Shown piece by piece: positions 3,588 through 43,267 of a stretch of 64,000 bases of DNA (position 1 is its first letter; each line of letters opens with the position of its first letter). The notes under the pieces are model-generated. The model was given only the letters and a program-made list of their open reading frames with translations. It made no database searches and was not told where the DNA came from. The DNA comes from Candidatus Levyibacteriota bacterium (GTDB lineage: Bacteria > Patescibacteriota > Microgenomatia > Levybacterales > UBA12049): positions 15,700 to 79,699 of the forward strand of contig JACOXU010000001.1 in assembly GCA_016182185.1 (NCBI GenBank). The letters are read 5' to 3'. Both the position numbers and the translations under genes were made by a program.

Positions 3588-5921
3588 ATGGTAGATTACA
3601 GGAACAGCAGGCTATCAAGACGTCGCCTCAGACATAGTTCCTCAAAAATAATTCTCTACAGCAAACTTGCCAAATATGCCTTCTTCGGACTAATAGGATT
3701 TTTAATACTAATGACCGGACTTTTTCTTTGGTATGGACGTGATCTTCCAACGCCCGGAAAATTAATTGAGCCGGATTTATCACAATCTACCAGAATTTAT
3801 GATCGAAACGGTATACTCCTCTACTCTGTTTATCAAACTCAAAACAGAACCTATATTAAACTGTCTGAAATTCCAAAGATACTTCAGCAGGCAACTATTG
3901 CAATTGAAGATAAAAACTTTTATAAAAATCAGGGATTCTCAATTACCGGATATGCAAGAGCAATTAGAAATATCCTGCTTTTCAGGGGTCTTTCAGGAGG
4001 TTCTACGATTACACAGCAGTTGGTAAAGAATGTCTTATTAACTTCTGAGCGCACAATTCCCCGTAAGATAAAAGAGCTAATGCTCTCAATTCAGGTTGAC
4101 AAAAAATATACAAAGGATGAAATTCTGGAGATGTACTTAAATGATGTTCCTTATGGCGGTGCAAATATCGGAGTTGAGGCAGCTGCAGAATCATATTTCG
4201 GAAAAAAAGTTAAAGATTTAAATTTGGCAGAAAGCGCATTTCTGGCAGGTCTTCCTCAGGCGCCCAGTATATATTCTCCCTTTTCCGGAAAAAAATTTTA
4301 TGTCAAGCGAACAGAGGATGTACTTAAACAAATGGTCAACGAGGGAATGATAAGCAATAAACAAAAAGAACAGGCGCTTTCCGAGATAAAGTCAAAAACT
4401 TTTTCAGAAAAAGATACCGCAATAAAAGCTCCACACTTTGTCATGTATGTCAAACAGCTCTTAGCAGAAAAATTCGGTGAAAACTCTATTACCTCAGGTG
4501 GTCTTCAAGTCACAACGACACTCGACTATGAAATTCAAAAAAAGGCAGAGGAGATAATCAAGGACGAGATTAATAAGCTTAAGGGTTTCAATGTTGGAAA
4601 TGGAGCCGCAATCGTGTCAGATCCTAAGACGGGTGAAATTTTGGCAATGGTTGGAAGCAAAGACTATTTCGATACAGACAACGATGGTAATTTTAATGCA
4701 TCGTTATCAAACCGTCAGCCCGGGTCCTCTCTTAAGCCCATCATGTACGCGACAGCATTTGAAAAGGGATACACTGCGTCTACGCTTGTAATAGATGTGA
4801 AGACAGAGCTTCCTTCAAATGATCCAAAGAATCCTATCTATACACCGGTAAATTATGATGGAAAGTATAGAGGTCCCATTCAACTCCGTTTTGCGCTTGG
4901 AAATTCAGTAAATGTGCCTGCGGTCAAAATGCTTGCAAGAGTTGGAATAAAGGACGTTATGCAGCAGGCTTACAATATGGGGATAGAAAACTGGCAGCCA
5001 ACCAAGGAAAACCTGGCTAAAGTCGGGTTCTCGCTTGTCTTAGGAGGTCGGGAGACATCACTTCTTTCAGAAATTACGGCATATGGAGTTTTTGCAACAG
5101 CAGGAATAAGGCAAGATCCTGTCGCCATTTTAAAAGTCGTAGATAGTAAAAATAGTAAATTATTTGAGCATAAGAAAACTGATGGTCAGAAAGTCTTGTC
5201 TTCTGAGGCATCTTTTCTTATCTCTCATATCTTGCTTGACAATAATTCAAGAAGCATGGAATTTGGGACCAATTCGTGGCTTGTTATACCAGGCAGGACA
5301 GTTTCTGTAAAAACTGGTACAACTGATGATAAGAGAGATAACTGGACAATTGGATATACGCCGTCATATGTGGTTGGAGTTTGGGTGGGAAATAATGATA
5401 ATAGTCCAATGAACAAAGCAATTGCCTCAGGGGTCACGGGAGCATCCCCAATTTGGAACAGGATTATGAGGGAGGTTCTAAAAGGAAAAAGCGATGAAGC
5501 ATTTAACAAGCCGGATAATGTAGTTGCTATACAAGTAGATTCGTTCGGAGGAGGATTACCTGTAGGCGGTCAACCAACTCGTTCAGAATATTTTATAAAG
5601 GGAACTGAGCCTACGGGCCCTGGTCAGATTTATCAGAAGCTAAAACTTTCTAAACACCAATCTGGTAAACTCGCCAGTGAGTGGGAGATAAGTCACGGAG
5701 AGTACGATACAAAAGATTACATCGTATTTAAAGAAGAAGATCCTGCTTCAGCAGATGGAAAGAATCGTTGGCAGGAGGGAATTGATGCCTGGCTCAGGGA
5801 AAAATATTCTGCAGCTGATTGGCAATACTATCCGCCCAGAGAAACATCAGACTACAAGGGATCAGATGAATCAAACGAACCAACCCCCACATCTACTTTG
5901 ACTATTTCCCCAACACCCTAG
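3588..5921 (+). CDS. class A penicillin-binding protein (bifunctional transglycosylase/transpeptidase, PBP1A-like)
   Basis: N-terminal TM helix, the GT51 motif IAIEDKNFYKNQG, and transpeptidase motifs SSLKP (SxxK), SVN (SxN) and KTGTT. The C-terminal tail is low-complexity and Pro/Thr-rich. Confidence 0.9.
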   Translation: MVDYRNSRLSRRRLRHSSSKIILYSKLAKYAFFGLIGFLILMTGLFLWYGRDLPTPGKLIEPDLSQSTRIYDRNGILLYSVYQTQNRTYIKLSEIPKILQQATIAIEDKNFYKNQGFSITGYARAIRNILLFRGLSGGSTITQQLVKNVLLTSERTIPRKIKELMLSIQVDKKYTKDEILEMYLNDVPYGGANIGVEAAAESYFGKKVKDLNLAESAFLAGLPQAPSIYSPFSGKKFYVKRTEDVLKQMVNEGMISNKQKEQALSEIKSKTFSEKDTAIKAPHFVMYVKQLLAEKFGENSITSGGLQVTTTLDYEIQKKAEEIIKDEINKLKGFNVGNGAAIVSDPKTGEILAMVGSKDYFDTDNDGNFNASLSNRQPGSSLKPIMYATAFEKGYTASTLVIDVKTELPSNDPKNPIYTPVNYDGKYRGPIQLRFALGNSVNVPAVKMLARVGIKDVMQQAYNMGIENWQPTKENLAKVGFSLVLGGRETSLLSEITAYGVFATAGIRQDPVAILKVVDSKNSKLFEHKKTDGQKVLSSEASFLISHILLDNNSRSMEFGTNSWLVIPGRTVSVKTGTTDDKRDNWTIGYTPSYVVGVWVGNNDNSPMNKAIASGVTGASPIWNRIMREVLKGKSDEAFNKPDNVVAIQVDSFGGGLPVGGQPTRSEYFIKGTEPTGPGQIYQKLKLSKHQSGKLASEWEISHGEYDTKDYIVFKEEDPASADGKNRWQEGIDAWLREKYSAADWQYYPPRETSDYKGSDESNEPTPTSTLTISPTP

Positions 5922-7804
5922 ACAACTTTTGCCTTGAATTTTTGTTGTACCGCCTCAATAATTTTTTCTCTTATCTTTCCTACCTCTTCATTGGTTAAAT
6001 TTCTTTCTCTGTGTTGATAGATAATATGAAAAGTTCTGTTATTTTTAAACATATCTTTTAATTCTACGCTTTCTATAATTGTACTTTGTTTTTTTATTTC
6101 ATTGATAATTTCGCCGGTTTTTGCAATTCCGGAAATTTCAATGGTGATGTCTTCAACAACAGGGGGATACTTAGGAATAGGTTTGTATACTCTTTCAAGT
6201 TTAGTCTTTTCTAAGATATCTGAAAAATTCAATTCAAATATTACACCATCGCGGGTGACGTCAATGAATCTACTTGGATCTTCATCAATATTTAATTCTT
6301 CAAAAATTCTTTCAAGGAGCCCCTTTATTTCGTAGAAGTTTTTTTCGTTTGAAATTCCTGAAAGCATATATAATTCATTGGCTTCATCAAGAGTCGGACC
6401 AAGATAAACCTTGCCCATTTCAAACAGATTTATCTTTTCAAAATTAGGTTTATTTTGAACAAAAGCTTTTAATAAGTTTATTTTAAGAGTCGGTCTTAGA
6501 TACTCAAACTCCCGACTTACAGGATTATCGACTCTTAATACCTTATCAGAGTTTATGTTAAGATTTACCAAATCCTTTTCACTTATGAGGCTATAGGAGT
6601 AAATCTCAGAAAATCCGTCTGCCTTTAATAAATTTTTTACTTTCTCATCAATCAAATAATTCTTAAAATATAGAATTGTTTTGGTAGGTATTTCTCCTTC
6701 GGGAATAGTTTTGGGGAAATTATTGTATCCATATAATCTTGCGACTTCTTCAATAAGATCTTCTTCAATCTTAAGATCGTTTCTGTAAGTAGGAATTACA
6801 ACTTTGATCAGATCTTTTCCAGTGTCTTTTGGAGAAAGATTTAATTTCTTCAAAATATTCAAAACTATTTCTTTTTTGATTGTGATTCCAAGAATCTTAT
6901 TTAGCCTCTCGTAGCTTAAGTTTACTACCCAGGGGGCAAAGTCCTCCTTTTTGATGTCAAAAATACTGCTTGAAATCTCCCCGCCTGCTATCTCAAGTAT
7001 TAAATCAAGGCATCTTTCGAGTGCTTCAGGAGTTCCCCCTGCATTTACTCCTCTTTCAAAAATACTTGATGCCTCAGAACGAAGCCCCAGTGATTGTGAA
7101 GCCCTTCTTATAAGAACTGGGACCTCCACGGGTACTCTTATGAAGATTGTTTTTGTATTTTCAAAAGTTCCACTGTTGAATCCCCCTTTTATACCGCAAA
7201 GATCAATAATATTTTCGCGATCTGAGATTATAACCGCTCCTTTGGGTAAATAATAGGAAAGACCATCAACGCTTTTGAATTTTTCTCCGCCTTTTGCTTG
7301 ATGGACCTTCATTACTTTTCCATTAATCCTTTCATAGTCAAATGCATGAATCGGATTACCGAGCTCAAACATCACATAATTTGTTATGTCAACGATATTA
7401 TTGATCGGACGTTGACCGATTTTTATTAATTTTTCGGAAAGCCATTTGGGAGAATCTTTAACTTTTATTCCATCAACTATGATTCCTGTGAATCTTGGAT
7501 TTATAGTACTTTCTGTTTGTATATTAAGAGGTAAAGATTTTTTGGGCTTTATATTCTTTATATCAATTCTGGTTTCAGGATATTTAATCTGTCTTGCTTC
7601 AATTGCCGCAATTTCCCGGGCAATTCCAATAATTGAGAGAAGATCGGGTCGGTTTGGGGTTATCTCAAATTCAAAAAATATATCATTATCAATTTTGGTT
7701 ATTTTTTCAGTTCCTAGGCCTACCTCGGTAAGTTTCTCACCAAGTTTCTCAGGTGAGAGCGTGATATCAACGTATTCTTTAAGCCATGATAAAGGTGCTA
7801 CCAT
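5918..7804 (-). CDS. pheT: phenylalanyl-tRNA synthetase beta subunit, short form lacking the N-terminal tRNA-binding domain
   Basis: B3/B4 and B5 domain-like sequence plus a C-terminal FDX-ACB-like region. It lies immediately downstream of pheS. At 628 aa it is shorter than the ~800 aa typical bacterial PheT. Confidence 0.85.
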   Translation of the reverse strand: MVAPLSWLKEYVDITLSPEKLGEKLTEVGLGTEKITKIDNDIFFEFEITPNRPDLLSIIGIAREIAAIEARQIKYPETRIDIKNIKPKKSLPLNIQTESTINPRFTGIIVDGIKVKDSPKWLSEKLIKIGQRPINNIVDITNYVMFELGNPIHAFDYERINGKVMKVHQAKGGEKFKSVDGLSYYLPKGAVIISDRENIIDLCGIKGGFNSGTFENTKTIFIRVPVEVPVLIRRASQSLGLRSEASSIFERGVNAGGTPEALERCLDLILEIAGGEISSSIFDIKKEDFAPWVVNLSYERLNKILGITIKKEIVLNILKKLNLSPKDTGKDLIKVVIPTYRNDLKIEEDLIEEVARLYGYNNFPKTIPEGEIPTKTILYFKNYLIDEKVKNLLKADGFSEIYSYSLISEKDLVNLNINSDKVLRVDNPVSREFEYLRPTLKINLLKAFVQNKPNFEKINLFEMGKVYLGPTLDEANELYMLSGISNEKNFYEIKGLLERIFEELNIDEDPSRFIDVTRDGVIFELNFSDILEKTKLERVYKPIPKYPPVVEDITIEISGIAKTGEIINEIKKQSTIIESVELKDMFKNNRTFHIIYQHRERNLTNEEVGKIREKIIEAVQQKFKAKVV

Positions 7805-37692: not shown

Positions 37693-39066
37693 TCAGACAC
37701 AGCAACTTAATTTAGAAATGTCCTTAGTAAAGGACAAGGCGGCAATTTTAATAGCCTCCGAAAGCGTCGGGAACATAGGTAAGGAATTTACCACGTCATC
37801 AATGGTATTTTTATTTTTAACTAACGACATCGCTTGAGCAATTAAATCACCTGCATTAGGAGCTAAAATATGCACCCCAAGAATTACTTTTGTCTCAGGG
37901 TGGATAACCATTTTTATTAAACCTTCCGTTCTGCCAATAATAAGAGCCTTTGGAACGTCTGCAAAAGAAACAGTCCGGCAAAGACACCTTCCTAACTGTT
38001 TCATTTCTTGTTCTTCAGTAAGTCCTACACCTGCGAGCTGTGGGTCAGTAAAGATAGTCCAAGGGACAGTATTGTAATCAATACTATTTTGAGTACCTTT
38101 AAGTGCATTTTCAGCAGCAAGCGTTCCCTCTCTGCCTGCTGTTGGTTCTTCTCTAATGGGTAGATTTGTCACATCGCCCACCGAAAAAATGTGTGGTTGA
38201 GATGATTGAAATTGAGGACTTACTTTTATCGCCTGTTTATCATCAATTTCTATATTAGCTTTATCAAGACCTAAGCCTTGTGTCTCATCGGCTGATACTT
38301 GTTCTTCTTTATTAGCGGTTATATAAGTCAGGACTTTCTTACCTCCTTCTTTACGTGCAGATTTAACTTGTACATTTGTTTTAATAGTTATGCCCTCTTT
38401 GGTAAGTATTTCGGCCAAACGATCAGTAAGTTCTCTTTCTGCCGGAGGGAAAATAGAGACATTCTTTTGTAAAACAGTTATTTTTGTTCCAAAACGAGAA
38501 TACATTTGTGCAAACTCCAATCCCAAAGGCCCCGCACCAACTACAATAAGTTCTTTGGGAAGATTTTTAATCTGTAAAGCCTCAATATGAGTCAAGTATC
38601 CAACTTCTTGTATATTCTCAATCGGTGGTACAGTTGCGGTCGATCCGGCTGCAATAATAAATTTCTTTGCTTGATATTTTTGTCCATTAACTTCAATCTC
38701 GTTAGGGGAAACAAAACTAGCTTTACCTTCTATGTGGGTAACATTTTCTAAACCATTTAAGACTTTCTCATACTTTTCAGCTCTAAGCTTTGCTACTAAA
38801 TCGAGTTCATGCTGAACAACTTGACTAAAATTAAAGTTTTTAACTTCTATATCAATCCCTGGAATATTGTGACTTTTAGCAAGATGCATTACTTCTCCTG
38901 CCCAAAGAAGCGTTTTAGAAGGAACACAACCAACGTTTACACAGGTTCCGCCTAGAGGAAGTCCCTGATTAACCATCAAAGTTTTTGCTCCAAGCTCATT
39001 GGCTTTAATAGCGGAAGCAAAAGCCCCTGCGCCTCCTCCGATAATGATTAAATCGTACTCATTCAT
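37693..39066 (-). CDS. mercuric reductase-like flavoprotein (MerA core without the N-terminal HMA domain)
   Basis: FAD motif IIGGGAGA; redox-active LGGTCVNVGCVPSK, identical to the MerA active-site signature; the C-terminus ends in ...KLSCCV, a Cys pair as in MerA ...QLSCCAG. Confidence 0.75.
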   Translation of the reverse strand: MNEYDLIIIGGGAGAFASAIKANELGAKTLMVNQGLPLGGTCVNVGCVPSKTLLWAGEVMHLAKSHNIPGIDIEVKNFNFSQVVQHELDLVAKLRAEKYEKVLNGLENVTHIEGKASFVSPNEIEVNGQKYQAKKFIIAAGSTATVPPIENIQEVGYLTHIEALQIKNLPKELIVVGAGPLGLEFAQMYSRFGTKITVLQKNVSIFPPAERELTDRLAEILTKEGITIKTNVQVKSARKEGGKKVLTYITANKEEQVSADETQGLGLDKANIEIDDKQAIKVSPQFQSSQPHIFSVGDVTNLPIREEPTAGREGTLAAENALKGTQNSIDYNTVPWTIFTDPQLAGVGLTEEQEMKQLGRCLCRTVSFADVPKALIIGRTEGLIKMVIHPETKVILGVHILAPNAGDLIAQAMSLVKNKNTIDDVVNSLPMFPTLSEAIKIAALSFTKDISKLSCCV

Positions 39067-39129: not shown

Positions 39130-40602
39130 TTATACCCCACATCCTGCTCCACCTTTTGTTTGGGGGATAAGATTTGGTATCTTGGCAATTTCTGTCTGTA
39201 CATTCTTGCCCCAGCCGCTACCTGTTGAGTAATCAGTACCCAACGCCACTTTTGGATCAACTTTGTCCCACTCTATGTTTTTAACAACCTTAAAATACAG
39301 GGCTGTTTGAATATAATTTTGTGGGAACCAAGAGGAATTGAAGGCGAGAGCCTCTTTGTAAAGTTCATCCTCGGAGAGTCCCTGTGATGCGCCAAGTTGC
39401 AGAAGTCCTAATAACGCTGATCCATGATTGCAGTCCTGAAAGAAAGTAGAGTTATTGCAACAGGGACGATAGGTGTTTTTGGCAATTTGAGTGACTAAAG
39501 CTTCTTGCTCTGGTGTCAATTCAACTATTCTGAATTTATTGAAATACGCTCCGCCATTTTCTTCCTTTCCTATATTCCAACCCCCAGTTGAAGCAAAGTT
39601 AAAAAGAGATTTTCCATTAACAGGACTATCTTTATTTGTTGACATATAGTTTGATAGTCCTAATGCCCAAAGAAGGTTAACGTAAGTGTTAGCGTTTTCT
39701 CTGGTGAGAAGAATAGGCCTATATGAAGATTGACTTAATATATCTTTCAGCTCGGGAGGCAATCCTCCGCGTTCTTTATAAATTTCTTCAAATTTACCCT
39801 GGTCAATAACGCCATTTTGTACCAATTCTACGACGCTATCCCCTAAGAAAATTTTGCTTTGAAAACCTTGTGCTGGCAAAACTTTAGCTACAACCTCGTC
39901 ATAAACTTTGTTTCCTGTTGAAGAAATGTTAGAGGTATTTAGTTTATTGTCGTTTGAGTTAAGAAGTGCTGTCTTATTAAAGAAGCTGAAAATTATTGGA
40001 TCAGTCTTAAGCATATTCCAGCCAATAAGTATCAAAACAGCAACCAATGCTAAAGAGGCTATAAGATAAGGTTTATCTTTTGCTCGATATGAAGTAGGGC
40101 GGGGAATCGGGCAAGTTTCATCGCCGCAACTTAAAGATTTTAACTCTCTTGTTGTTAACCAGACAGGAAGCGCCATTAAGGCAAAAGAAAGTGATTTTAG
40201 TTCTAAACCTTGCAGGGGGAAAGCTGCCAGCCCTCCGGCAATGCCAATAGCGGATAAAAGAACAGAACCGCAGACTGGACAAGCAGAGGCCGCCACCCCT
40301 ACTAATGCTCCTAAACTGCTTCCGCCTTGAACTTTGAGTCTGGGCGGTCCAAATTTCCTCCAGCGATAAACAAATAATGAGGCGTTAACGCCAAAAAGGA
40401 CAATAGTACCAAAAGTAAGAAGGATATATGACCATAAGTACACAGGCTGACTTTTGGTGTTGTTGATAAGATTATAAATACTTGAATTAAGGCTTAAGCT
40501 CCAATAGAAGATAAGCAGTAGAAGTAGAGAAGCCACCAGCCCGATTGAACCGTAAAATAAAAAGGTCAATAATTTTTTCTTAAATCTGTTAATTCTTCTC
40601 AT
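39130..40602 (-). CDS. Cys-containing polytopic membrane protein with a large extracytoplasmic C-terminal domain (candidate metal-ion transporter)
   Basis: About 5 TM helices in the first 190 aa. One carries ACPVCG; a loop carries SCGDETCP. The ~300-aa hydrophilic C-terminal domain has a PCCNNSTFFQDCNHG motif and ends GGAGCGV. It lies in an operon with the ArsR and MerA-like genes. Confidence 0.55.
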   Translation of the reverse strand: MRRINRFKKKLLTFLFYGSIGLVASLLLLLIFYWSLSLNSSIYNLINNTKSQPVYLWSYILLTFGTIVLFGVNASLFVYRWRKFGPPRLKVQGGSSLGALVGVAASACPVCGSVLLSAIGIAGGLAAFPLQGLELKSLSFALMALPVWLTTRELKSLSCGDETCPIPRPTSYRAKDKPYLIASLALVAVLILIGWNMLKTDPIIFSFFNKTALLNSNDNKLNTSNISSTGNKVYDEVVAKVLPAQGFQSKIFLGDSVVELVQNGVIDQGKFEEIYKERGGLPPELKDILSQSSYRPILLTRENANTYVNLLWALGLSNYMSTNKDSPVNGKSLFNFASTGGWNIGKEENGGAYFNKFRIVELTPEQEALVTQIAKNTYRPCCNNSTFFQDCNHGSALLGLLQLGASQGLSEDELYKEALAFNSSWFPQNYIQTALYFKVVKNIEWDKVDPKVALGTDYSTGSGWGKNVQTEIAKIPNLIPQTKGGAGCGV

Positions 40603-40604
40603 AT

Positions 40605-41216
40605 TTATCTAGCGTGATGATGTTCGCTATCTCCGCCGCATCCATCAGATAAATTCCACACTTGGGTAACCTGTTGTCCAGTAAATTGGTAATTTTTAAT
40701 TAAGATTTTACCCAACCCTCCATAAACATTCCATCTCCAGCATTTACAGCAACAAGGACCTTTTTCATCAGAATTTTGCATGGCATAATCATAAGCTTCC
40801 TGTTCTTCTGTGGACAACTGAATACTGTCATAATCTGCCATTAACTTTTTGGCCAGCTTTGCCTCAATGTCATAAGGATCAGGCGGAATTTCAGCGATAT
40901 TTTGATATTTCTTCAATCCTTCAACCTGCTCGCTGTAGCGGTGCATACTCATGGGGCTACAACAAGAACCTTGCAAACGAGAATTATCTGGCATTGAAGT
41001 GATAGAATCACGAAATGCTCCCGAGCAGGAGGAATTACCATGTTTTGAGAGGTAATCAAATTTTGCAGCCAACGCATCGTTAACCAATCCCTTTGTTTCC
41101 TGTTGAGATGACTGCTTAAGAGAAAAATTAAATAGCGGCTTAGATGAGAAAAAATAAAAATAACCTGCAATAAAGGCTGAAATAATTAGTGCTAATACAA
41201 GTATCTTTTTATTCAT
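40605..41216 (-). CDS. secreted Cys/His-rich protein (203 aa)
   Basis: Signal/TM helix; Cys clusters NSSCSGAF, QGSCCSPMSMHRY, GPCCCKCWRW; C-terminus DGCGGDSEHHHAR. Confidence 0.5.
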   Translation of the reverse strand: MNKKILVLALIISAFIAGYFYFFSSKPLFNFSLKQSSQQETKGLVNDALAAKFDYLSKHGNSSCSGAFRDSITSMPDNSRLQGSCCSPMSMHRYSEQVEGLKKYQNIAEIPPDPYDIEAKLAKKLMADYDSIQLSTEEQEAYDYAMQNSDEKGPCCCKCWRWNVYGGLGKILIKNYQFTGQQVTQVWNLSDGCGGDSEHHHAR

Positions 41217-41532
41217 TGTTTTCTAATAATTGACTTTTAATGATCGAAGCAAATTTATTTTTACCTAAAGAATATAAAACTTGCTTTGCTTGCCTTCTAT
41301 TCTCAACCACTTGTATTTCTTTCAACTTCTTTAGGCTGTGGGATACTGTAGAAATTGGTAATCCAATAATTTCCGCCATCTCAGAAACTGTTAGTTCTGG
41401 ATGATGACAAAGAAGGTAGCAAATCCTCATTCTGGTGAGATCACCTGTTGTCCCAAACCTTTCAGCACATGCCTCAATTTTCTTGTTGTCTTGAAGTTCA
41501 TCCCGAAGCACTTTTTTCTTCCTCATTTGCAT
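41209..41532 (-). CDS. ArsR/SmtB-family metalloregulator
   Basis: Winged HTH ...LTRMRICYLLCHHPELTVSEMAEIIGLPISTVSHSLKKLKEI...; CxxC-type (CYLLC) metal site in the alpha3 region. The start is probably the ATG (MQMRKKK); the ORF-track extension to 41577 uses TTG and would overlap the operator. Confidence 0.75.
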   Translation of the reverse strand: MQMRKKKVLRDELQDNKKIEACAERFGTTGDLTRMRICYLLCHHPELTVSEMAEIIGLPISTVSHSLKKLKEIQVVENRRQAKQVLYSLGKNKFASIIKSQLLENNE

Positions 41533-41542
41533 ATCTATACAA

Positions 41543-41579
41543 ATGATAGGAATTTGTTTTACTTTTGTCAATGACAAAA
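41543..41579 (-). promoter_or_regulatory. promoter with perfect 8-1-8 palindromic operator (TTTTGTCA-A-TGACAAAA) overlapping -35 TTGACA; -10 TATCAT
   Basis: Minus strand: TTGACA (plus 41566-41571), a 17-nt spacer, then TATCAT (plus 41543-41548), about 10 nt before the ArsR ATG. The palindrome spans 41563-41579. Confidence 0.5.
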
Positions 41580-41846
41580 TTGTAATAACATAACAGAAAT
41601 TAATAAAAAGCTTGTGCTATAATCTGTTTACCGAATGAACCTTGTGGTGAAAGTACCTTACTGTTAGGGAGCGAATGTTGATATCATAATTGATAATTCA
41701 TCTCGGCCACTCGGATCGATTTTCTAATATGCATACTTATACATTTTTTAGACCTAAAGTATAGGCTAAATCTGGTAAAAGGCCGTCAGATAGAAATAAT
41801 CTGAAGAATTCTGGCAGTCTGGCTAAGATCACGTCAGGAGCTCAAT

Positions 41847-42245
41847 TTATTCCCCAAGCCATTTTAAGGCCTCGTTTTTATCGTTGAACCAATGAATTGT
41901 ATCGTTTCTTCCCGCTGCTCCAATGATGAAATTTGCAGCAACTTGTAGGAATACATTTTGGCCGACAATAGCAGATTTTATAATCTGTTTGTGTTTCGCA
42001 AGCTCTATCCAAATCCTCCTTGCCCCACTTGATATATGACCACGGGAGAAGTATAAGATCTCAACTATAACTTCATATTTTTTACTCGGATCGGCATTGA
42101 ATATATTAAAAAGTCTTTCTTTTACTATTTCCATTCTTCTTGTGTTTTCATCGGGATCCGCTATATCAGTGATAATGTGAATGTGGATTACTTCATTTTC
42201 GAGCCGGATTTTAAAAGTATGTTTTAATTCATCATCTGTTCTCAT
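41847..42245 (-). CDS. hypothetical protein (possible STAS-like fold)
   Basis: 132 aa; no strong motif. Confidence 0.4.
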   Translation of the reverse strand: MRTDDELKHTFKIRLENEVIHIHIITDIADPDENTRRMEIVKERLFNIFNADPSKKYEVIVEILYFSRGHISSGARRIWIELAKHKQIIKSAIVGQNVFLQVAANFIIGAAGRNDTIHWFNDKNEALKWLGE

Positions 42246-42346
42246 GGTTGATTATCTCAGTATATATGAATAAAAGGATATGATGTCAAGCAATGAGCCG
42301 CTTTTATAAACGGGATTTATGACGTATAATTTATTTACTAAATCTT

Positions 42347-43267
42347 GTGGAAATAATTTTTATTTTACTTACGATTCTTGGCTTATCGCTCTTTGAGGTT
42401 ATAACTAGCATTGATAATGCTGTTATAAACGCGGAAGTCTTGTCTTCGATGTCTCAGAAGGCCAGAAGATGGTTTTTGCTCTGGGGATTTTTATTTGCAG
42501 TTTTTGTAATAAGAGGAATACTGCCCTTACTTTTAGTTTATGCAGCTAATCCTCAGCTTGGACTAATCGGAGCTTTTACAGCAACGCTTAATGGAGGAAA
42601 TGGGATTGCCGAAACCATAAAAGAGTCATCAAGGCCACTTCTGGTGGGCGGCGGAGTTTTCTTGATTTTTCTTTTCTTCAACTGGCTTTTTATTGAACCT
42701 AAAAACTACGGTCTTAGAGCAGAAAAGTTTTTCCACGCACAAGGCGCATGGTTTTTTTCGATAATATCAATAATACTTTCTATAATTGTCTGGTTCGCCC
42801 TTAAAGAAAACGGTCTTATGGCGTTTGGCGCGGTGGTAGGCTCAACTGCTTTTTTTATAGTCCATGGATTTCGTCAGTTTGCAGAAACTCAGGAGAAAAG
42901 GCTGGTCTCTCAAGGAATGTCTGATGTATCAAAAATTGCCTATCTTGAAGTACTGGATTCTACTTTTTCTGTTGATGGTGTTGTGGGGGCATTTGCCTTT
43001 ACTTTTTCTGTTCCCTTAATCCTTTTAGGGAACGGATTAGGAGCGCTTGTCTTGCGAAAACTGACAGTCAGCAATATTGACAGAATAAAAAAATATGCCT
43101 ACTTAAAAAATGGTGCTATGTATTCGATATTATTTTTGGGTGCAATAATGATTCTTGATAGTTTTGGATTTCATATTCCACCATGGCTCTCGCCTATCAT
43201 CACCTTCGGTACTGTGGGATATTTCTTCTATAAGTCAAGGCTTGAGTTAAAAAATAATCCCTCATAA
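42347..43267 (+). CDS. TerC/DUF475-family integral membrane protein
   Basis: EVITSIDNAVINAEVL (ExxxSxDN motif); multiple TM helices. Confidence 0.6.
   Translation: MEIIFILLTILGLSLFEVITSIDNAVINAEVLSSMSQKARRWFLLWGFLFAVFVIRGILPLLLVYAANPQLGLIGAFTATLNGGNGIAETIKESSRPLLVGGGVFLIFLFFNWLFIEPKNYGLRAEKFFHAQGAWFFSIISIILSIIVWFALKENGLMAFGAVVGSTAFFIVHGFRQFAETQEKRLVSQGMSDVSKIAYLEVLDSTFSVDGVVGAFAFTFSVPLILLGNGLGALVLRKLTVSNIDRIKKYAYLKNGAMYSILFLGAIMILDSFGFHIPPWLSPIITFGTVGYFFYKSRLELKNNPS

Follow-up and report, generated by a model that had tools for sequence, protein, structure and literature searches.

A mercury-resistance operon headed by an ArsR-type regulator

The window, by which we mean the whole stretch of 64 kb analysed here, belongs to a Microgenomates (CPR) genome and carries four genes on the same strand in the order arsR, orf203, orf490 and merA, preceded by a promoter that two separate dyads overlap (Table 1). 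A MerA equivalog match, a C-terminal cysteine pair and a co-oriented regulator mark the group, as far as sequence goes, as a mercury-resistance (mer) operon: the merA product scores 470.7 against TIGR02053 (cutoff 454.45), contains the Pyr_redox_2 and Pyr_redox_dim domains and ends in ...SKLSCCV. The same linkage is widespread, with merA lying downstream of the regulator on the same strand in most of the related loci that hold enough downstream sequence. MerA has already been recorded in lineages of the Daviesbacteria, Levybacteria, Gottesmanbacteria and Collierbacteria type, in a survey whose text makes no mention of ArsR (PMC8261052), and we found no description of ArsR-type mer regulators or operators in CPR bacteria in the searchable literature.

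The two genes between the regulator and merA match no family in Pfam or NCBIfam, permissive thresholds included. The product of orf203 has CC and CCC motifs and a C-terminal HHH, and that of orf490 joins a hydrophobic N-terminal part with CPVCG to a C-terminal CCNN...C..H...GCGV. Both are kept at 63–92% identity and in the same position in CPR mer operons (orf203 in close-clade loci), and neither MerT nor MerP was seen in the CPR mer operons that have them. We regard the two proteins as candidates for new mercury-binding or transport proteins.

Table 1 Features of the operon and of its promoter region, in coordinates of the window
Feature	Position	Strand	Remarks
merA, mercuric reductase core without the N-terminal NmerA domain	37693..39066	minus	C-terminal Cys-Cys
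orf490, Cys-rich, predicted membrane protein, family-less	39130..40602	minus	CPVCG and C-terminal Cys motifs
orf203, Cys-rich, family-less, N-terminal hydrophobic segment	40605..41216	minus	start overlaps the regulator stop by 8 nt
ArsR/SmtB-family regulator, 107 aa	41209..41532	minus	Cys22, Cys38, Cys42; recognition helix S61-x-x-S64-H65
Candidate operator, imperfect 12-2-12 repeat ATCATTTGTATA-GA-TATGCAAATGAG	41522..41547	minus	10/12 pairs; conserved in related loci
Candidate operator core ATTTGTATAGATATGCAAAT	41544..41525	minus	matches TTTG.A-N6-T.CAA
Predicted transcription start A/G/A	41534..41536	minus	7–9 nt after the −10, leader of 2–4 nt; from the usual −10-to-start distance
−10 hexamer TATCAT	41543..41548	minus	its final three bases open the inverted repeat
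−35 hexamer TTGACA	41566..41571	minus	consensus scan; close and distant loci alike keep TTGAC(A), at 16–18 nt from the −10
Perfect 8-1-8 palindrome TTTTGTCAATGACAAAA	41563..41579	plus: TTTTGTCA-A-TGACAAAA	overlaps the −35

Family profiles and near-full-length similarity identify the regulator as an ArsR/SmtB protein. It matches Pfam HTH_5 (PF01022; 2.6e-9, 37.3 bits against a cutoff of 22) and NCBIfam NF033788 (65.4 against a cutoff of 55), and its residues 9–103 resemble CadC, SmtB, CzrA, PagR, BigR and NmtR in the PDB with E values from 2e-10 to 6e-5, the first three standing at about 1e-10. Its homologues are found in Candidatus Daviesbacteria, Levybacteria, Gottesmanbacteria, Collierbacteria and other Patescibacteria. 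The regulator has neither the canonical α3 metal box ELCV(C/G)D, the ELCVCD of CadC aligning with ELTVSEM, nor the α5 His/Asp/Glu ligands. Because sensing sites vary in the ArsR/SmtB family, the missing box does not exclude membership, and the type of site is not among the characterised ones.

What the family keeps instead is a set of cysteines. All 81 unique family proteins have Cys22 and Cys38, and the third cysteine is Cys42 in 62 of the 81, with Cys26 in its place in 16 of the 18 proteins that have Arg42. An AlphaFold model (AF2, pLDDT 90.5), used here only to assign the cysteines to helices, puts Cys22 in helix 16–25 and both Cys38 and Cys42 in helix 32–43. For the winged-helix fold the model gives no usable support: residues 75–90, which align with the β-hairpin wing in CadC and SmtB, come out as a single long helix, and the best Foldseek match in the PDB, CadC 3f72_E, is weak (E 0.039, TM 0.40). 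The helical wing is probably an artefact, the prediction being shallow and made on the monomer only. The cysteine pattern suggests a three-thiolate Hg(II) site formed from helices 1 and 2 (Cys22, Cys38, and Cys42 or Cys26), and the linkage to merA, together with the existence of known ArsR-type mer repressors, makes Hg(II) the most likely effector.

Promoter and start codon of the regulator gene

On the minus strand upstream of the regulator, TTGACA, a 17-nt spacer and TATCAT match the σ70 consensus at 11 of 12 positions and form the top site of a consensus scan over 40500–42500. The regulator promoter is above chance because matches of at least 11/12 are enriched in the window (6 observed, 2.35 ± 1.3 expected); for the palindrome that extends its −35 box, no such excess over chance could be demonstrated. 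All six matches fall on the minus strand (10463, 12357, 14669, 16921, 41571 and 50432), the expected 2.35 being for both strands together. Among the 92 related loci compared, the −35 and −10 boxes keep the same spacing in close and distant orthologous loci, and a TAnnAT −10 is kept throughout the family, fused to an ATTTG half-site. With near-consensus hexamers at 17 ± 1 nt that are retained in orthologous loci, the segment 41543–41571 has the marks of a strong σ70-type promoter of the regulator-headed mer operon. The first-pass annotation of this DNA had proposed just such a promoter for the ArsR-type gene, made of a consensus −35, a 17-nt spacer and a 5/6 −10 ending about 10 nt before the ATG; all of these elements are present in the sequence, and their conservation bears out the assignment.

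The same annotation had preferred the ATG at 41532 to the TTG with which the longest ORF begins, at 41577, and here too the homologues agree: most of the 86 are 107 aa long and begin MQM, MQV or MQI. The TTG sits within the upstream arm of the palindrome and upstream of the −35, and would therefore not be transcribed from the regulator promoter. Every close-clade locus has the first ATG, and some have ATC or GTG in place of the second (L003, L071, L078); the rare longer gene calls (P0035) merely translate conserved promoter DNA. Homologue lengths and N termini, taken with the position of the TTG upstream of the −35, place the start at ATG 41532 and give a protein of 107 aa rather than 122.

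A gap of 10 nt (41542..41533) separates the −10 from this ATG, which begins 11 nt after the last −10 base, and the sequence before it contains no Shine–Dalgarno-like G-rich tract. The near-leaderless transcript that had been suggested for the regulator is thus what we would predict as well, with a presumed leader of 2–4 nt. In 15 related loci the ATG stands exactly 7 nt after the −10, from which we argue that leaderless expression is normal in this regulator family.

Further upstream, the 315-nt intergenic region beyond the promoter (41580–41846) recurs nearly base for base in one related locus (L002), except for a 33-nt indel. It includes an extended −10-like sequence, TGCTATAAT, at 41615–41623 on the plus strand, and could give rise to a divergent small transcript. 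An Rfam scan of 41450–42400 with E up to 1 matched no family, which leaves no known riboswitch or sRNA to account for the region. Upstream homology between close-clade loci (L001–L012, L071–L079) typically stops about 10 nt upstream of the −35, and regulators that are 80–92% identical occur in bins of different candidate phyla (Daviesbacteria, Levybacteria, Gottesmanbacteria, Collierbacteria). The comparison suggests that the mer cassette moves horizontally together with its promoter.

Two dyads at the promoter

Two inverted repeats accompany the promoter. One is the perfect 8-1-8 palindrome that overlaps the consensus −35, as the first-pass annotation had correctly noticed, and that was read there as the operator of the ArsR-type protein. 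The other is an imperfect 12-2-12 repeat, 20 bases downstream of the palindrome, which begins in the −10, runs across the predicted start site (41536 ± 1) and stops beyond codon 3 of the regulator gene (codons 1–3, ATG CAA ATG).

Rarity does not tell them apart from background. In a window of 36.6% GC, perfect 8-1-8 palindromes occur four times against 2.3 ± 1.3 expected, and perfect palindromes with 8-nt arms and loops of 0–4 nt occur 18 times against 10.2 ± 3.7; the palindrome, taken by itself, is not unusual here. Repeats of the 12-2-12 type with at least 10 of 12 pairs number 8 against 5.8 ± 2.2 expected, which is not statistically unusual. Since single-sequence statistics fail to discriminate either dyad, the case for an operator rests on comparison.

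We aligned the upstream regions of 92 related loci, 70 from genomes and 22 from metagenomes, and obtained an anchored alignment of 73 unique upstream sequences. The anchor pattern forces 11 of the 20 core columns, and the independent evidence lies in the unforced columns, the spacing controls, the hit rate and the extra copies. Between −150 and +45 of the regulator start, the core TTTG.A-N6-T.CAA is found in 84 of the 92 loci, and several of the 8 loci without a match have one-base variants. With the spacer changed to 4, 5, 7 or 8, the core is found over the same interval in 0 of 92. The sole block conserved across the family in the 73 unique sequences is TAnnAT fused to ATTTGnATA-N4-TnCAAAT, and the repeat at the regulator promoter is the only exact match to this family consensus in the 64 kb. 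A search of the window for further copies, as a sign of a regulon, turned up an operator-like match with 2 mismatches at 6181–6200 on the plus strand, GTTTGTATACTCTTTCAAGT; it falls within a 628-aa ORF (5918–7804, minus), and we set it aside as probably due to chance.

The dyad keeps a constant register to the −10 in the 73 unique loci, whereas the distance from the −10 to the ATG varies: 15 unique loci have their first in-frame ATG 7 nt after the −10, 23 have it at 11 nt (the type of the window), 3 at 17 nt and 25 at 21–22 nt, and in these last 25 the whole dyad is untranslated. A register that is fixed to the −10 while the ATG moves means that coding constraint is no explanation for the dyad. 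In the clade of the window, one half-site position is asymmetric (T on the left, G on the right), and this G belongs to the ATG; the right half-site makes room for the start codon at the expense of dyad symmetry.

Additional copies point in the same direction. Complete promoter-plus-dyad modules stand directly upstream of merA in two loci (L013, at about 1690–1750, and L068, at about 6225–6290), and another locus (L047) has a second module at about 3620–3690, 334 nt upstream of the regulator. These extra modules consist of TTGACA, 17 nt and TAnnAT fused to the repeat, and none has a palindromic −35. On the protein side, all 81 unique family proteins have the recognition-helix residues S61-x-x-S64-H65 unchanged, which fits the invariant TTTG/CAAA core of the aligned sites. 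Thr62 goes with T at operator position 5 and G on the other arm, whereas Val62, Asn62 or Ala62 goes with A/T (41539 and 41530 in the window). As a sign of protein–DNA covariation this is weak evidence, since it probably reflects a single clade-level change and is confounded with clade.

Operators of the ArsR/SmtB family are imperfect 12-2-12 repeats located in the operator-promoter or over the start site (PMC8790569, PMC5658604). The repeat at 41522–41547 has this geometry, lies in the operator-promoter and is conserved at orthologous regulators as well as at targets, and its half-sites TTTGTAT and TTTGCAT are one position off the TGAA/TTCA core of characterised operators. We predict that this repeat, and not the palindrome, is probably the operator. 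For ArsR/SmtB proteins, a dyad at which the repressor covers the −10 and +1 of the operon it heads is the textbook, ordinary arrangement.

The palindrome over the −35 box

The exact palindrome is present in 0 of the 92 related loci, and its two arms behave differently. The downstream arm, TTGACAAA, being the −35, does not vary in the 21 unique upstream sequences whose regulators are 62–92% identical to that of the window. As upstream arm, close relatives have TTTTGTTA, TTTTGCCA, TTTTGTAA, TTTTACTA, AATTCATA or ACTTAGGA, and also GAAGATCA, ATTTCCAA and AGGACCTC, among others, so that this arm is unconserved even at 80–92% protein identity, with substitutions that have no compensating change in the other arm. 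On average 3.9 of 8 arm pairs are complementary in the 21 close sequences, and the information content at the three inner positions of the upstream arm is about 0.2 bit in that clade; in distant promoters with a recognisable −35 (n = 29), the symmetry of the arms is 2.2 of 8, which is about chance. The inner GTCA is kept in a single member of the close clade, L071, whose flank is homologous to that of the window, and L002, with the same 340-nt flank, has GCCA and a broken dyad. The palindrome differs from ArsR/SmtB operators in geometry and is not retained in orthologous promoters.

These observations count against the reading in which the palindrome is the autorepressor operator and a bound ArsR dimer occludes the −35, the one claim of the first-pass annotation that did not survive the comparison. 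A perfect dyad seated on a consensus −35 invites that reading, and some ArsR/SmtB sites do overlap a −35, as with TtSmtB on TTC0354 (PMC5658604) and AzuR on nmtA (PMC8790569). But the related loci lack the palindrome, its upstream arm drifts uncompensated at high protein identity although the recognition helix is invariant, an 8-1-8 geometry is unlike the 12-2-12 type, and a different dyad is the one conserved family-wide. We hold it to be extremely improbable.

The palindrome might instead play a subordinate part, with the 12-2-12 repeat as primary site and the −35 palindrome, seen as TTTG-N7-CAAA, as a weak, lineage-specific auxiliary site for cooperative repression. ArsR/SmtB operator-promoters hold one or two repeats (PMC8790569), and the palindrome has the tetranucleotides TTTG and CAAA in common with the operator half-sites; these are, however, 7 nt apart in the palindrome against 10 nt in the conserved site, and the core occurs at no other spacing in any locus. 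L072 (TTGTCAATTGACAA) and L049 (TGTCAAATTTGACA) also mirror their own −35, around different centres. Overall, a mirrored −35, with GTCA no more than 14 nt upstream of TGAC, is slightly more frequent than expected (4 of 51 promoters; 1.7 expected), but with P = 0.09 and three different symmetry centres among the four cases we rejected it as evidence for a site. The broken dyad of L002 in an otherwise homologous flank weighs against an auxiliary site as well, and we consider one unlikely.

A role outside ArsR regulation, in which the palindrome or its T-rich upstream arm serves as an UP-element-like A/T tract or as the site of an unrelated factor, would fit the TTTT tract just upstream of the −35 that is partly kept in about half of the close clade. 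Further copies of TTGTCANTGACAA with up to 2 mismatches are, however, at chance level in the window (5 matches, 4.1 expected), and the promoters of the distant clade carry no information upstream of the −35; such a role strikes us as very unlikely. Two other functions were considered and rejected. As a terminator of the upstream gene, the palindrome would have an AT-rich stem with a 1-nt loop, and a terminator scan of 40500–42500 found none; as a divergent promoter starting from the ATGACA on its plus strand, it has no acceptable −10 at 16–18 nt.

We take the palindrome to be a chance extension of the −35 box that is peculiar to this lineage, and not a conserved operator. On this account the −35 hexamer and its A-rich 3′ flank would have been mirrored by chance in the T-rich upstream flank of the lineage of the window.

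Proposed mechanism and significance

The sequence features, how far they are conserved, the family of the protein and its linkage to merA are shown by the data; operator binding, effector, cysteine ligands and start site we infer from them. In the resulting model, in which we have good confidence, the promoter drives the four-gene mer operon, the palindrome is not the site of the regulator, and a regulator dimer would sit on the 12-2-12 repeat at 41522–41547 until relieved by Hg(II). The bound repressor would bar RNA polymerase from the −10 and +1 region. Once Hg(II) occupied the presumed thiolate cluster, made up of Cys22 from helix 1 with Cys38 and Cys42 from helix 2, the affinity for DNA would fall, and release would yield the near-leaderless operon mRNA. 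The repressor would thereby be autoregulated, its gene being probably autorepressed.

For annotation, the analysis fixes the regulator start at ATG 41532, which shortens the protein from 122 to 107 aa, and shifts the probable operator to 41522–41547. It also brings out a compact module (TTGACA, 17 nt, and TAnnAT fused to ATTTGnATA-N4-TnCAAAT) that is common to the mer operons of many CPR/Patescibacteria lineages. Such a module can be transplanted into E. coli, which makes it one of the few routes to test gene regulation in these bacteria, as CPR organisms cannot be cultured. The findings point to a simple three-cysteine ArsR-type mercury sensor, and the more interesting leads are the unusual cysteine triad, the start codons embedded in operators and the two family-less Cys-rich proteins of the operon.

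A broader proposal built on these leads is more speculative, and we put it forward as a possibility that we rate somewhat below even. The regulators may form an uncharacterised, CPR-wide branch of Hg(II)-sensing ArsR/SmtB proteins, with a helix-1/helix-2 tri-thiolate site (Cys22, Cys38, Cys42/26) unlike all characterised ArsR sites, with an operator that incorporates, in at least three alternative registers, the start codon of a leaderless mer transcript, and with orf203 and orf490 replacing uptake of the MerT/MerP type.

Comparison with known systems

ArsR-type mer repressors are known in Sulfolobus and Streptomyces, where they repress in the absence of Hg (PMC3466566). Like the regulator described here, those of Streptomyces lividans and Sulfolobus solfataricus belong to the ArsR and not the MerR family and occur with merA. 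The present system belongs to a different phylum (CPR), and its layout is co-transcribed, not divergent. The repressor of S. lividans also differs in having more than six cysteines, and the sole studied ArsR-type Hg sensor, from Streptomyces, was never characterised chemically (PMC11672702).

The closest solved relatives are the CadC proteins of S. aureus pI258 and of L. monocytogenes (Lmo1102), with E values of 2e-10 to 8e-10 over nearly the full length, and CadC likewise is a repressor that heads its own metal-resistance operon. CadC carries the ELCVCD box where the present regulator has ELTVSEM, and the presumed cysteine ligands of the latter lie in helices 1 and 2. A parallel for the near-leaderless transcript is found in Thermus thermophilus, where the ArsR/SmtB gene for TtSmtB has its own transcript starting 3 nt before the start codon (PMC5658604). 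Unlike the regulator promoter here, the own promoter of TtSmtB lacks consensus boxes, and its best site overlaps the −35 of another gene.

In the placement of the predicted operator, the nearest counterparts are the cyanobacterial operator-promoters of SmtB, ZiaR and AztR, which have an imperfect 12-2-12 dyad that covers the −10 and the start of translation or lies between the two; the zia repeat lies between the −10 and the start codon (PMC8790569). The resemblance extends to the protein, since the regulator matches SmtB at 1e-9 by sequence, and to the DNA, in that the Anabaena aztA repeat TACAATTGAATA-GT-TGTTCAATTGTT and the distant-clade repeat ATTATTTGAATA-AT-CGTTCAAATACT have the identical core TTGAATA-NN-NGTTCAA (PMC8790569, Table 2). 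The window itself departs from these systems in its half-sites, TTTGTAT and TTTGCAT as against TGAACA/TGAATA, in a start codon that lies inside the right half-site, and in a presumed effector that is Hg(II) and not Zn or Cd.
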